A stretch of 64,000 nt of DNA from Nannocystis pusilla (GCF_051105105.1 NZ_CP185339.1), one strand, 5' to 3'. Counted from the first letter of the stretch, positions 4,449-61,800 are shown. Notes: generated by a model from the letters alone, not told the origin. Program-made: numbers and translations.

Positions 4449-4518
4449 AAGGACATGTCCGTGACGGCATGTCCAGAAGGGCATGTCCGCATGGGCATGT
4501 CCGGAAGGACATGCCCCT
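4449..4518. repeat. Array of five CATGTCC units at ~14-bp spacing. It includes a perfect GGACATGTCC.
   Basis: gaaggacatgtccgtgacggcatgtccagaagggcatgtccgcatgggcatgtccggaaggacatgccc. Confidence 0.85.
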
Positions 4519-4528
4519 ACAGTCAGAC

Positions 4529-5266
4529 TCAGCGGTTGTCGAGCGCGACCCGGCGGAAGGACCCGCACCCGCCGGCCGACGGGGCGCCCGGCGTGGCGAA
4601 GCACGGGATGCCCGGGTCCGGCCCGTCGGCGAGGACGTTGCAGCGCCAGTTCCAGCCGTCGCCGACGGCCGAGGCGTCGGGGAAGGTCGAGACGAGGCGG
4701 AAGGTCGCGCGCTGGTGCGGCGGCAAGGTCGTGACCTCGCGCGCGTCGCGGTCCTCCGGGTCGAGGATGACGTTGCCGCCCGTGGGCGCGAAGCCGACGA
4801 GGCTGACGTCGTGGAGCGCCAGCGGCACCTCGCAGCCGTTGTGCAGCTCCACGACGGCCCGCGGCGGCGCGCCGCGGATCGCCCGCAGCTCGACGCCGAG
4901 GCAGTTCTCGACCCGGCGGCGCTCCTCCTCCGCGTGCTGGCGCTCGAACTCGGCCCGCCGTTCCTCGGCGGCGCGGTCGTCGAGCACGACCGCGACGATG
5001 TAGCCGCCCGCCAGCAGCACGTGCATGACGACGGGTCCCCAGGTGCGCCGGCCGACCCACACCATGAGGAAGGTCGTCACCAGCGCGTAGGCGACGAGGA
5101 TCTCGAGCGTGAAGACGGCGGCCAAGCCGAGGAGAACGTTTTCACCGCGCGGCAGGCCGAGCAGGACCCCGCCGAAAACGTAGAGGTAGAGGACGACCAG
5201 CGCCAGCAGGGCGAGGCCGTGGAGCTGCCAGGCGCGCCGCGTGTCGCGGCGGTCGGGCGCGGTCAC
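4529..5266 (-). CDS. Hypothetical membrane protein.
   Basis: The N-terminal half is hydrophobic (LLALVVLYLYVFGGVLLG...VFTLEILVAYALVTTFLMVWV) and the C-terminus is soluble. There is a 4-nt overlap with the upstream lipoprotein gene. Confidence 0.55.
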   Translation of the reverse strand: MTAPDRRDTRRAWQLHGLALLALVVLYLYVFGGVLLGLPRGENVLLGLAAVFTLEILVAYALVTTFLMVWVGRRTWGPVVMHVLLAGGYIVAVVLDDRAAEERRAEFERQHAEEERRRVENCLGVELRAIRGAPPRAVVELHNGCEVPLALHDVSLVGFAPTGGNVILDPEDRDAREVTTLPPHQRATFRLVSTFPDASAVGDGWNWRCNVLADGPDPGIPCFATPGAPSAGGCGSFRRVALDNR

Positions 5267-5910
5267 TGCTGCGGCGGGGGTTGGGCCGCCAGCGCGTTAC
5301 GGAACTCGGGGGTCTGGGCCAGCTTGACCGAGCCGTCGAGGGTGGCGTCGCCGAACGCCTGCAGGAAGTTGCTCTCCTCCTGGCTGCGGCCCCAGCGGCT
5401 GCTCTTGCCGGCGATCGGGCCCTGCCACAGCGTCGTGCTGTTGCGGTCGATGAGCCAGCCCTGGGCCATCAGCGCGGCCTGGTAGGTGTTGCCCTCGACG
5501 ATCCAGAACTGGTCGAGCTGCAGCTGCAGGGTGTGCGTCGCGGCCTGCGGGTCGGCGGTGACCGGGAAGCCGAGCGCGGCGAGCTCCTTGGCGAACACGT
5601 TGCGGACGTACTCGGTCGGGACCTGGCCGCCGGCGGCGTTGTAGACCGGCAGGTCGGGGTTGGCGTCCTCGCTGACCCCGAGCAGGTGCGGATCGGTCAC
5701 TTGCCGCTTGTCGACGATCTGGGCGATGAAGATGAGGGTGCCCGGGGGGACCGCCGCGAGACCCGCGACCTTCGACGGGTCGGCCTTCTCGCTCGGCGAA
5801 TAGACCAGCGGGAAGGAGATGATGTCGGGGGACGAGGCGCAGGCGCCTGCGGTCAGCGCGGCGGAGAGGAGGCCGCAGGCGAGGAGCGAGGAGCGAGCGC
5901 GGTGCTGCAT
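5263..5910 (-). CDS. Lipoprotein of unknown function.
   Basis: Signal peptide plus lipobox (LLACGLLSAALTAGAC); non-repetitive soluble domain. Confidence 0.65.
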   Translation of the reverse strand: MQHRARSSLLACGLLSAALTAGACASSPDIISFPLVYSPSEKADPSKVAGLAAVPPGTLIFIAQIVDKRQVTDPHLLGVSEDANPDLPVYNAAGGQVPTEYVRNVFAKELAALGFPVTADPQAATHTLQLQLDQFWIVEGNTYQAALMAQGWLIDRNSTTLWQGPIAGKSSRWGRSQEESNFLQAFGDATLDGSVKLAQTPEFRNALAAQPPPQQ

Positions 5911-59184: not shown

Positions 59185-60174
59185 ATGAAGACACGCGCGT
59201 GGACGATGACCGCGGCGCTGGCGGCCTGTGTGCCGCAGGCCGCGACGACTGCGACCGAGAGCGAGACGGGGACGGAGGCGACCGGGACCGCGAGCGAGGC
59301 GACCGCCGCCGCGCCGACGACGACGGACGGGACGACCGGGGCGCCGGCGCAGTGCGAGACGTTCCCGACGTACCGCATCGACGTGCAGGCCGAGCCCAAC
59401 GGGCTCTACTGGCGCGCCGGCGAGCAGCGGCTGTACATCGCCGACGACGACAACAATCGCGTGCTGGTGCGCGACGAGGACGGGACGACCGAGGTGTTCG
59501 CGGAGATCCCGAACCCCTCCGGCGATCCCGGCGCCGACGGCCTCGGCGACCTCGACTTCGCCGCCGATGGCACGCTCTATCTGCCGCGCTTCGGCTTCGG
59601 GATGCCCGGCCTGGGGGCGATCTTCCGCGTCGCGCCCGACGGTACGGCGGAGGCGCTCGCGGGCGTCGACGACGAGTGGCGCCGCGTCGGCCTCGACTAC
59701 GACGACGCGCGCGGGCTGCTCTACGTGGCCACTTACTCGCGCGACGCCGACGACGTGTACACCGGCTGGATCGCCAGCGTCGACCCGGTCGCCGGCGTCG
59801 AGACGATGATCGTCGGCGGCCTCAGCAAGCCGGTCGGGATCGCGGTGCTCGGCGACACCCTGTTCGTCGGCGACCAGTCACAGCGGCAGCTGTTCAAACT
59901 CGACCTGAAGGCCGCGGCGCCGGCGCTGACGCTGGTGTCGGACGAGTTCGAGTCGCTCGACCTGATGGAGACGACGCCCGACGGGGCCCTGGTGGTGCTG
60001 TCGTACGACACCGCCAACAGCACCGGCCGCGTCTACCGCGTGACCGGGGACGGGGCGATCTCGACGGTCGCGGAGGGCGACTGGGAGCCGCGCGGGATCG
60101 CCTTCGACGGCGTCAGCCGGATCTTCGTGTCCGCCCGCGACACCCAGCAAATCGTGGTCGTACCGGCCTGTTGA
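59185..60174 (+). CDS. Lipoprotein with an SMP-30/gluconolactonase/LRE-like beta-propeller.
   Basis: Lipobox (MTAALAAC) after RBS ggag; repeated DG.LY..D motifs. Confidence 0.65.
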   Translation: MKTRAWTMTAALAACVPQAATTATESETGTEATGTASEATAAAPTTTDGTTGAPAQCETFPTYRIDVQAEPNGLYWRAGEQRLYIADDDNNRVLVRDEDGTTEVFAEIPNPSGDPGADGLGDLDFAADGTLYLPRFGFGMPGLGAIFRVAPDGTAEALAGVDDEWRRVGLDYDDARGLLYVATYSRDADDVYTGWIASVDPVAGVETMIVGGLSKPVGIAVLGDTLFVGDQSQRQLFKLDLKAAAPALTLVSDEFESLDLMETTPDGALVVLSYDTANSTGRVYRVTGDGAISTVAEGDWEPRGIAFDGVSRIFVSARDTQQIVVVPAC

Positions 60175-60180
60175 GCGCCC

Positions 60181-61575
60181 GTGGACCCGACGAGCTTCAT
60201 CCTCGCCGCGGCGCTGGGCGCCGCCCCGGTTGACGAGATCACCAGCGTCCCCGTGCCCGAGGCCCGCGAGGATGCGGCCGACGGTGACAGTGGCCGAGAG
60301 GACATGACCCGTACGACAGGTCCTTTGGAACCTGGCGTAAAGACCACCTCGGCGGCGAGCCGGGGGACGGGCGGCCCCAATCCTGGGGGCGCGGTCCCGG
60401 CGGGTCCGGTCGCGCCGACCGGCGCCCCCGCCCTGGATGTCCCGAAGGGCATGCCCTCGGGGACATCCAGGCCGCCCCTGCGCGAGCGGCTGCAGTTCTT
60501 CCCGTACGGGTGGATCCGCACCGACGCGACCTGGTACTCGGCGCCGCGCGAGGGCTACAGCAACATCAGCCTGGCGGGGGCGCGGATCGGCGGCGGGGCC
60601 CAGATCGGGCCGGTCACGGCGTTCGTGACGATCGAGGCGGCGCAGGCCAAGGGGCCGCAGCTGTTCGACGCGTTCATCGCCTGGGCCGCGGCGCCGCGGC
60701 TGCGGCTGCGCGCAGGCCAGTTCAAGGCGCCGTTCGGCCTGCGCTTCAACGCGCCGGATCTGGTCGACGAGCTGCCGCGCGCGCCGCTGTCCATGCTGGC
60801 GGCCACGCCGGGGCGGCAGGTCGGGCTCGAGGTGGCCTACGACTTCTGGCGCTGGGCCGAGGTCACCGCCGCGGTGTTCTCCGGCATCGGCCAGAACCGC
60901 GAGGCCAACAACACCAAGATCGCGTTCGCCGGCAAGGTGCAGCTCAGCCCGCTGGCGTTCCTGCAGCGCGGCCCGCAGCTCCTGCTGGTGGCGTCGGTGT
61001 TCGCCTACCACAAGACGAACGGCTTCACGCCGACGGTGACCACCGCGTTCGCCTTCGACTTCTTCCACGGCCTGCCGAGCACGGGCGCGTCGCGCCGCTT
61101 CACGGCCGGCGGGGGGCTGTTCTGGCGCTTCCTGTCGGCCCGCGGCGAGTTCTTCTACACCTACGACTCGCGCGAGCGCGACACCGACGGCGACCCGTTC
61201 ACGCCCGGCGATCCGCTGCCCCAGCTGATCGGCGCCGGCGGCTACGCCCAGCTCGGCGCGGTGGTGACGGGCCAGGACAAGGACCCGGCGACGCTGCTGC
61301 CGCGGCTGGCGAGCCGCCGGGTGCGCGACAGCGCGGTCGAGCTGTCGGCCCGCTTCGAGCGCTTCCGCGTCGGCGCCCGCGACGTGGTCGGCAACGGCAT
61401 CACCGCGACGTTGGCCGGGGTGAACTGGGTGCTGCTGCAGCACCTGCGCGTGTTCGCGGCGGTGAACTGGCAGCGGCTGGAGACCGCGATCCCCGAGATC
61501 CCGCGCGCGACCTCGTGGGGCGTGACCGGCGGCCTCGCCGGCTTCTTCCTCGGCCGCGCCGGGCGCGGCGATTGA
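60181..61575 (+). CDS. Putative outer-membrane porin-like beta-barrel protein. The start is uncertain because the 5' region contains palindromic elements.
   Basis: Alternating amphipathic beta-strand pattern (RLQFFPYGWIRTDATWYSA..., VGLEVAYDFWRW, LLLVASVFAYHK, FFYTYDSRE); no clear signal peptide from the GTG at 60181. Confidence 0.45.
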   Translation: MDPTSFILAAALGAAPVDEITSVPVPEAREDAADGDSGREDMTRTTGPLEPGVKTTSAASRGTGGPNPGGAVPAGPVAPTGAPALDVPKGMPSGTSRPPLRERLQFFPYGWIRTDATWYSAPREGYSNISLAGARIGGGAQIGPVTAFVTIEAAQAKGPQLFDAFIAWAAAPRLRLRAGQFKAPFGLRFNAPDLVDELPRAPLSMLAATPGRQVGLEVAYDFWRWAEVTAAVFSGIGQNREANNTKIAFAGKVQLSPLAFLQRGPQLLLVASVFAYHKTNGFTPTVTTAFAFDFFHGLPSTGASRRFTAGGGLFWRFLSARGEFFYTYDSRERDTDGDPFTPGDPLPQLIGAGGYAQLGAVVTGQDKDPATLLPRLASRRVRDSAVELSARFERFRVGARDVVGNGITATLAGVNWVLLQHLRVFAAVNWQRLETAIPEIPRATSWGVTGGLAGFFLGRAGRGD

Positions 61576-61800
61576 CGTGTCCGAAGGGACATGTCGCCCG
61601 GTCGGTCGCAGGATGTCCGAAGAGACATGGGATCGACGAAGCCGGGCGCGCGACGACATGGCCCTCAAAGCATGTCCGGAGGTGCATGCGTGAGGCAATT
61701 GTCGCGTCTCGGACCCTGAGATGGGGTCGCGCTCCGCGGGCCTCCGCCTGCACGCGCGGCGTCCGTGCGGCCCTGATACGGGGATGTCCGGGAGGACAGG
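61574..61800. repeat. Cluster of 6 or more GACATG-family elements in the intergenic region upstream of the PPC-lipoprotein gene.
   Basis: gacgtgtccgaagggacatgtcgcc...ggatgtccgaagagacatggg...cgacatggccctcaaagcatgtccgga...gggatgtccgggaggacagg. Confidence 0.8.

Follow-up and report, generated by a model that had tools for sequence, protein, structure and literature searches.

Phased 14-bp palindromes at gene ends in Nannocystis, a REP/BIME-like repeat family with a possible role at transcript 3' ends

Introduction

The closest described counterparts of the repeats reported here are the repetitive extragenic palindromes (REPs), families of which are generally linked to REP-associated tyrosine transposases (RAYTs) or IS200-like enzymes, and whose function has been debated for four decades. 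In Escherichia coli, REP325 acts as a partly Rho-dependent terminator and as a stabilizer of the upstream mRNA (bioRxiv 10.64898/2026.03.23.713779), and the REPs of Pseudomonas putida and other proteobacteria strongly prefer the gaps between convergent genes (PMC1525189). Here we describe a family of short, strictly phased palindromes first noticed in a 64-kb stretch of Nannocystis pusilla DNA (NZ_CP185339.1). We call this whole stretch the window, and positions refer to it unless another locus is named. Our best explanation, to which we give about an even chance, is a genus-specific family related in kind to REPs and to their clusters, the bacterial interspersed mosaic elements (BIMEs), that acts in the formation or protection of transcript 3' ends.

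Other short repeats also invite comparison. The DNA uptake sequence (DUS) of Neisseria and the uptake signal sequence (USS) of Haemophilus are oriented words, common in coding DNA and variably spaced, whose inverted pairs just past genes form a terminator stem. The highly iterated palindrome of cyanobacteria (HIP1) occurs as single copies across coding and non-coding DNA. High-GC bacteria have non-canonical hairpin terminators that lack a U-tract, and the TRIT motif is found in mycobacteria. The terminator activity of hairpins without a U-tract is disputed (PMC3993855).

Results

The basic unit is a 14-bp inverted repeat

The initial annotation of the window had proposed a dispersed repeat built on a perfect 10-bp palindrome, and its over-representation was borne out. 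The 10-mer GGACATGTCC occurs four times (4451, 14806, 20115 and 37216) against an expected 0.05, a count that none of 100 shuffles reached, and the 8-mer GACATGTC occurs 10 times against an expected 0.64, in DNA of 72% G+C. A further perfect copy reported at 20208 actually reads AGACATGTCC. Coordinates in that annotation were off by 1-6 bp.

Spacing proved stricter than the approximately 14-bp arrays that had been noted. Among CATG-CATG distances of up to 100 bp in the window, 14 bp is seen 19 times (compared with about once at adjacent distances), 28 bp 10 times and 42 bp 7 times; nearly all distances that are not multiples of 14 are seen 0-3 times, with 30 and 36 bp at 5-6 times. Across 634 kb of Nannocystis loci, CATG pairs at 14, 28, 42 and 56 bp number 339, 168, 108 and 42, compared with roughly 5-15 pairs at most other distances. 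The two-unit pattern GGVCATGBCC-N4-GGVCATGBCC is present five times in the window against an expectation of 0.00. In this register, the loci resolve into two to five copies of the unit GG(A>G)CATG(T>C)CC, with four unrelated bases between one copy and the next.

Sequence logos of the flanks showed that arrays start with ..TGNCC and finish with GGNCA... Since both boundaries are half-sites, arrays consist of whole numbers of the 14-bp palindrome TGYCC-N4-GGRCA. The basic unit is therefore better given as this inverted repeat, modules of which abut without a gap; such head-to-tail abutment produces both the 14-bp period and, at each junction GGRCA/TGYCC, the 10-mer that had first been recognized.

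The geometry of the module hardly varies. The half-sites TGTCC and GGACA are separated by four bases in 162 cases, by three in 2, and by five or six in none. In the opposite order, GGACA is followed directly by TGTCC 108 times, and spacers of one to four bases account for 1-4 cases each. Stand-alone modules number 73 and frequently read CCTGTCC-N4-GGACAGG, and a weak, strand-symmetric preference extends the half-site by one base. In the window, 49 modules match at least 9 of the 10 half-site positions, compared with 18 in shuffles (maximum 26), and nearly all the loci listed in the initial annotation carry a module of this quality. Module pairs in phase number 68, against 41 over all other distances combined, and the phase holds up to 5-6 units. 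The 4-nt spacers are fixed in length and unrelated in sequence between copies. Fixed geometry, conserved half-sites and a free spacer are what is expected of operator or iteron sites.

The family is genus-specific and abundant

We scanned a collection holding one genome per species (185,579 species) with the two-unit pattern and obtained at least 120 loci. Among the matches listed, 80 loci are from Nannocystis (N. exedens, N. pusilla, N. punicea, N. bainbridge, N. radixulma, strain RBIL2 and several metagenome-assembled genomes); the other 40 are single matches in unrelated taxa, with nothing beyond one match each. Among the matches listed, the family is thus specific to Nannocystis, and it runs through the sampled genomes of the genus and is not confined to the window. 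Eight matches in viral contigs were rejected as isolated chance hits, each without further modules, and a locus from Candidatus Zhuqueibacter was set aside as unrelated, being a plain microsatellite of 14-bp period in which all spacers are identical.

We counted 12 arrays in the window and, in the locus flanks, about 140 further arrays per Mb, which extrapolates to a copy number of roughly 2000 per 12-13 Mb genome. An Rfam search of the window returned no family matching the repeats, its sole matches being two tRNA genes at 25136-25208 (- strand) and 33444-33510 (+ strand). A literature search found no description of Nannocystis repeats or of this motif in bacteria. We conclude that the TGYCC-N4-GGRCA family is real, pervasive and, so far as the literature search shows, undescribed.

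Elements lie just past stop codons and in convergent gaps

Genes were called with a codon-likelihood caller trained on long open reading frames (ORFs) with high third-position GC. Convergent gaps hold 91 of the 181 arrays of two or more units, tandem gaps 38 and divergent gaps 10. In tandem gaps the arrays mostly lie within 40 bp of the upstream stop, even though hundreds of base pairs are free before the next start, and the median distance from stop codon to first module is 16 nt. Because the loci had been selected for containing an array, one ascertained gap per locus was removed before gaps were recounted. After this correction, at least one module is present in 64% of convergent, 26% of tandem and 18% of divergent gaps, compared with 5-8% in shuffles. 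The window, which is free of array-based selection, has the family at about 11 gene ends and in 4-5 of its 10 convergent gaps; its other gene ends carry generic GC-rich hairpins, a point in favor of our best explanation. These data show that the elements are placed just past stop codons and in most convergent gaps. The earlier assignment to divergent promoters and to positions upstream of start codons was largely wrong.

Called genes contain 45-48 copies, against 2-3 expected from codon shuffles, and the density inside genes is about 20-fold lower than outside. The genes flanking the arrays share no common function.

Most elements can form stable stem-loops

Seven of the nine window elements that we folded form stable hairpins (-15.8 to -42.2 kcal/mol, z from -4.0 to -6.8), and two are marginal, namely the hairpin at 38074 (z = -2.2) and the array at 20108-20140 (z = -0.85). 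Overall, the energies span -12 to -42 kcal/mol. Most elements are thus able to form stable GC-rich stem-loops on either strand. Since a palindromic unit pairs automatically with its neighbor, we tested for pairing that is specific to the partner. In two-unit arrays, partners are complementary at 4.30 of 6 variable stem positions, compared with 3.89 +/- 0.07 when partners are shuffled; in 2000 shuffles the observed value was never attained. Stems of 11 bp or more with perfect pairing, reaching into spacers and flanks, number 30 against 3 in shuffles. Over all adjacent units, covariation is weak (chi-square p 0.003-0.06), and it is clear only in two-unit arrays and long stems.

Half-sites are conserved between species

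The stretch at 35966-43173 is 87-90% identical to N. punicea FL3, which marks the source of the window as closely related to that species, and 10 orthologous locus pairs were available overall. Most arrays are held in place, with surrounding DNA differing by 6-16%. Over 25 orthologous non-genic modules, identity is 0.90 in half-sites and 0.81 in flanks 30-45 nt away (p = 8e-4), and it drops to 0.53 in the spacers (p = 7e-9). These values show purifying selection on the half-sites and drift of the 4-nt spacer. The possibility that spacers are inverted between orthologues was rejected on inspection of alignments by eye.

Changes at paired positions are partly compensatory: 4 of 21 are double substitutions, and the array at 37216 shows a C-G to T-A switch relative to N. 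punicea. In five-unit arrays the outer pairs persist and the middle unit decays (locus pairs L079/L086 and L020/L097). At one orthologous site (L048/L089) a hairpin is kept, with an unrelated stem (GGGCGCGCC..GGCGCGCCC). Several orthologous sites have arrays that differ among species, and the array at 38074 is missing from the orthologous site in N. punicea, which has no target-site duplication. Retention at orthologous sites together with half-site conservation indicates that the elements persist over long times under constraint on their sequence and, in part, on their pairing, and that they are occasionally gained or lost.

A separate observation concerns a locus of N. punicea (L057, 5112-6021) that corresponds to window positions 41050-41171. 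There, the two convergent genes are separated by an additional gene of about 0.8 kb, whose stop is followed immediately by a two-unit array of its own; at this site the window has only a degenerate array.

Elements in the window

The array at 4451..4516 (modules 4456-4511) has five units in perfect 14-bp register and is situated in the 84-bp convergent gap between a histidine kinase gene (3464-4444, + strand) and a gene at 4529-5266 (- strand); its folding energy is -42.2 kcal/mol for the + strand and -39.3 for the - strand. A second convergent gap, between the genes at 8776-11025 (+) and 11150-11482 (-), holds the element at 11057..11119, composed of a hairpin, a degenerate unit and a unit at 11110-11119. 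The hairpin (11064-11095) has 14-bp arms and the loop TCCG and folds at -37.5 kcal/mol (z = -4.8). The element at 14750..14815 combines modules at 14755-14768 and 14797-14810 with the perfect 10-mer at 14806-14815. The end of the element is 6 nt away from the stop codon of the gene at 14821-15543 (-), which is convergent with a trypsin-like gene (13073-14569, +).

Further elements lie past the stops of other genes. A unit and a module at 15773..15791 lie about 40 nt past the stop of the gene at 15829-16932 (-), and a further isolated module is found at 15668-15681. The element at 37139..37166, which lies 81 nt past the stop of the gene at 36606-37058 (+), is the perfect hairpin CGGACATGGCC-CGAA-GGCCATGTCCG; its 12-bp stem folds at -23.8 kcal/mol (z = -6.8), and it is identical in N. 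punicea. This hairpin and that at 11064-11095 had both been named initially and are confirmed. A two-unit array (37216..37239) lies 12 nt past the stop of the gene at 37251-37580 (-), and one hairpin module (38074..38097) lies 7-15 nt past the stop of a CopD-like gene (38105-38575, -). Four elements (61578-61591, 61614-61627, 61654-61686 and 61785-61798) begin 3 nt past the stop of a porin-like gene (60181-61575, +).

The four-unit array at 20087..20135 stands between the end of a kinase ORF and the start of a PEGA-domain gene, and overlaps the ambiguous start of the latter (MFRRTCPGIHV...). A second copy (20184..20232) is part of a duplication of about 94 bp and is found immediately 3' of what is probably the true stop codon of the kinase/TPR gene (20233-20235). 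The duplication is in tandem and comprises the gene 3' end and the array (20113-20150 and 20207-20245). In the same region (20100-20450), the last ~100 codons of the Ser/Thr-kinase ORF have a low third-position GC of 0.46-0.66, and the other two frames read as TPR-like sequence ending in ...KVKEKIGG*; together these features suggest a frameshift, with the true stop at 20233-20235.

A minority of elements is found away from 3' ends. Three degenerate units at 17190..17224 lie in the divergent gap between the genes at 15829-16932 (-) and 17368-18696 (+), and two more at 30159..30182 lie at the 5' end of the gene at 29171-30139 (-), also in a divergent gap. Three near-identical GCATGTCTC(C/G)(G/A)GGGACAT modules (8320, 8524 and 8606; 8320..8619) are spread over the 1-kb region upstream of the DUF4215 protein gene (8776-11025), a region that might hold a small gene or RNA missing from the annotation, or in which the module might be put to regulatory use. 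The 813-bp gap upstream of the histidine kinase gene contains three weaker modules (3151, 3214 and 3334, each 9/10; 3151..3347). One module at 57922..57935 is upstream of, or overlaps an artefactual start of, a gene for an XRE-type HTH regulator, and an isolated module at 57569..57582 sits in the perfect palindrome GGTACCTGTCC-CCGC-GGACAGGTACC.

Two elements involve actual or possible coding sequence. The perfect module TGTCC-TGCG-GGACA at 20804..20817 lies in the coding linker of the Ser/Thr kinase, where it encodes ...VPQDMPEQ..., as had been recognized from the outset. Two abutting modules (60438..60465) form part of a near-perfect 40-bp palindrome in which the arms are complementary and the two 4-nt spacers are not. 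This stretch belongs to a low-complexity N-terminal region of a porin O/P-like ORF (...LDVPKGMPSGTS...) and is possibly coding.

Annotation effects and neighboring features

Spurious long ORFs that take their ATG start from the CATG of a repeat unit have the reading MS(F/P/R/L)R(A/T)CP...; examples are 57921-60233, 60239-60466, 60437-60628 and 61242-61628. The initial annotation had rightly called such 'MS.RTCP.GH' frames artefacts. Automated annotation of Nannocystis genomes is likely to contain mis-called starts or false genes at arrays.

Modules also occur within longer direct repeats. In N. pusilla Na p29 (L121, 5480-5910), nine 41-bp direct repeats each contain CACCTGTCC-N4-GGACACC and are followed by an AT-rich stretch of about 30 bp (GC 0.49 over 100 bp), a layout that is iteron-like; they lie in a 1.1-kb gap of a terpenoid-like gene cluster. 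In Nannocystis sp. RBIL2 (L017, 1270-1700), four to five non-coding 97-bp direct repeats with one CCTGTCC-CGAA-GGACAG module each adjoin a five-unit array at a gene end, directly after it.

Two other genes of the window deserve mention. The gene at 30648-33368 (+) encodes a 906-aa MVP-like protein with Pfam Major Vault Protein shoulder and Vault_3 repeat domains. The gene at 1832-2650 (+) encodes a protein of the DUF4123 family, whose members are often associated with type VI secretion effectors, and is followed at 2650-2760 by a direct repeat of GCTGAGCTTCCGCGCCCGAGCGGCGCG.

Discussion

A proposed role at transcript 3' ends

The features of the family taken together suggest the REP/BIME class: a lineage-specific, extragenic palindrome with a preference for 3' ends and convergent gaps, conserved stems in which positions covary, loops that are free, and clusters in which orientation alternates. 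We consider it an evenly balanced proposition that the Nannocystis family acts in this class as gene-end palindromes that form or protect transcript 3' ends. Arrays would be transcribed as part of the 3' untranslated region and fold into stem-loops that define or protect the transcript end. They might do so by aiding termination, possibly with Rho, or by blocking 3'-to-5' exonucleases, and in convergent gaps they may insulate the converging transcription units in the manner of E. coli REP325 (bioRxiv 10.64898/2026.03.23.713779). Since hairpins lacking a U-tract may not terminate on their own (PMC3993855), stabilization or factor-assisted termination is likelier. The half-sites are more conserved than pairing needs and the spacer length is invariant, from which we infer a trans-acting factor that reads sequence. 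Judging by this pattern, the half-sites are probably recognized by such a factor, which could be a RAYT-type spreading enzyme or a binding protein.

Several observations weigh against this explanation. A GC-rich hairpin within about 100 nt of the stop is present, as in canonical intrinsic terminators, but the 7-9-nt U-tract is not: right flanks are T-rich (at least 5 T in the next 12 nt) in only 15 of 158 arrays and left flanks A-rich in 14 of 158. Canonical T-run terminators are themselves not enriched in the window (5 against 3.8 expected, 20 kb), and the RNA polymerase of another high-GC lineage requires a U-tract for intrinsic termination (PMC3993855). Of 355 pairs of adjacent units, 259 are mismatched at one or more of the three base pairs next to the loop. 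At the variable pair on the sense strand, U.G is not in excess of C.A, either overall (38 vs 36) or in tandem gaps (7 vs 7), which speaks against selection purely on one RNA strand, as this would predict a bias. Sense-strand loops in tandem gaps show no preference for UUCG or GNRA in a small sample. A stem foot of the GTAG or CGTC type is absent: apart from half-sites that decay (TGNCC to the left and GGNCA to the right), the flank logos contain no conserved word. Some modules are upstream of genes or in coding sequence. Finally, a tblastn search with E. coli RayT, a weak test, found no match in 0.7 Mb of Nannocystis DNA (best E-value 0.97).

Alternative explanations

The main rival sees each array as a row of operators for a sequence-specific DNA-binding protein that acts as a dimer, with one dimer per 14-bp TGYCC-N4-GGRCA. 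We think this rather improbable, yet it fits the strict geometry, the neutral spacers and the strand symmetry equally well. A contiguous protein array would form on double-stranded DNA at gene ends, with hairpin potential as a by-product, and would serve as a transcriptional roadblock, an insulator, or a topological barrier where converging transcription accumulates supercoils. Such sites would explain why the spacer never varies in length yet is free to drift neutrally in sequence, why half-site conservation exceeds the needs of pairing, and why the one-base extension of the half-site is strand-symmetric. Equally in keeping with protein sites are the lack of a sense-strand G.U bias, the phase kept over as many as 5-6 units, and the presence of modules in the iteron-like 41-bp and 97-bp repeats and in upstream regions. 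Against double-stranded sites stand the excess of partner-specific complementarity reaching into spacers and flanks, the double compensatory substitutions, and the orthologous site at which the element was exchanged for an unrelated GC hairpin; no candidate protein emerged from the sequence examined, and promoters contain few of the sites. The compensatory changes might equally stem from template-switch correction of quasi-palindromes, so that this evidence is not decisive. The initial annotation had already raised a protein-binding site, a suggestion that geometry, conserved half-sites and strand symmetry favor, with a half-site and register that differ from those proposed at the time.

A stronger version holds that phased 14-bp operators bound by a dedicated, lineage-specific protein mark a large share of Nannocystis gene ends. 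We judge this unlikely. If true, it would amount to protein-based bidirectional termination, insulation or a supercoil barrier, a bacterial counterpart of the roadblock terminators mTERF and Reb1.

It is likewise doubtful that we are dealing with selfish hairpins, non-autonomous and mobilized by a RAYT/IS200-like or other enzyme, that have no host function and pile up where they are harmless. The array of the window that is missing in N. punicea and the variation of arrays among species at several orthologous sites are consistent with mobility, and REPs have been discussed as transposition targets (PMC1525189). Against this, most arrays persist at orthologous positions in diverged DNA with half-sites conserved above their flanks, and arrays hug the stop codon where hundreds of base pairs of gap are free. 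Nor are the copies recent pastes of a single master element, given that the spacer of one copy is unrelated to that of another. No conserved cleavage-type motif is found in the flanks, and the RayT search, weak as it is, gave no match. A relation to miniature inverted-repeat transposable elements (MITEs) is not supported: the elements lack terminal inverted repeats enclosing a conserved 50-500 bp interior, unit number varies, spacers are unrelated, and a target-site duplication is absent at the one presence/absence site. Of the REP/MITE-like nature suggested initially, the REP-like half therefore stands, as the family is genus-specific, far denser outside genes, hairpin-forming and located at 3' ends.

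A DNA-uptake-type signal for natural transformation, with inverted pairs doubling as terminators as in Neisseria and Haemophilus, would suit the lineage specificity, great abundance, terminator-like positions and in-gene excess of the family, but is highly improbable, since strict N4/N0 geometry, a palindromic module and tandem phasing are foreign to such oriented words, which have no fixed spacing and include coding DNA, and since the density within genes is so much lower than outside.

Significance

Among repeats of the REP type, the Nannocystis family is unusually simple, with a 5-bp half-site and fixed 4/0 spacing, and unusually pervasive, being present in about two-thirds of convergent gaps and conserved genus-wide. 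Comparing half-site mutations with compensatory stem swaps would be a clean way to tell whether sequence or structure is recognized. The arrays also mark the ends of transcription units in genomes that are mined for natural-product gene clusters, and they create ambiguous start codons in their annotation.

Comparison with known systems

Like U-tract-less terminators, the Nannocystis elements are GC-rich hairpins past stop codons in a genome lacking canonical terminators; unlike such generic hairpins, which have no common sequence, they have a conserved half-site and a fixed geometry. With HIP1 they share a short, perfect, lineage-specific palindrome far above chance, but they form arrays at gene ends. 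As with DUS and USS, a short lineage-specific word recurs as inverted pairs past genes; here, in contrast, it is strictly phased and mostly non-genic. The REPs of P. putida are likewise lineage-specific and prefer convergent gaps, but are single units of about 35 bp or inverted doublets with loose spacing rather than phased 14-bp arrays. The family also resembles E. coli REP/BIME-2 elements, which are likewise short GC-rich palindromes with hundreds to thousands of extragenic copies at gene 3' ends, and which also have conserved covarying stems, variable loops, clusters of alternating orientation and two alternating linker types. The E. coli REP is about 35 nt long, whereas the repeated entity in Nannocystis is a 5-bp half-site in a 14-bp module, with linkers of exactly 4 and 0 bp and no GTAG-type foot. 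The 5-bp half-site, the 14-bp module and the exact phasing set this family apart from other REP/BIME-like families.

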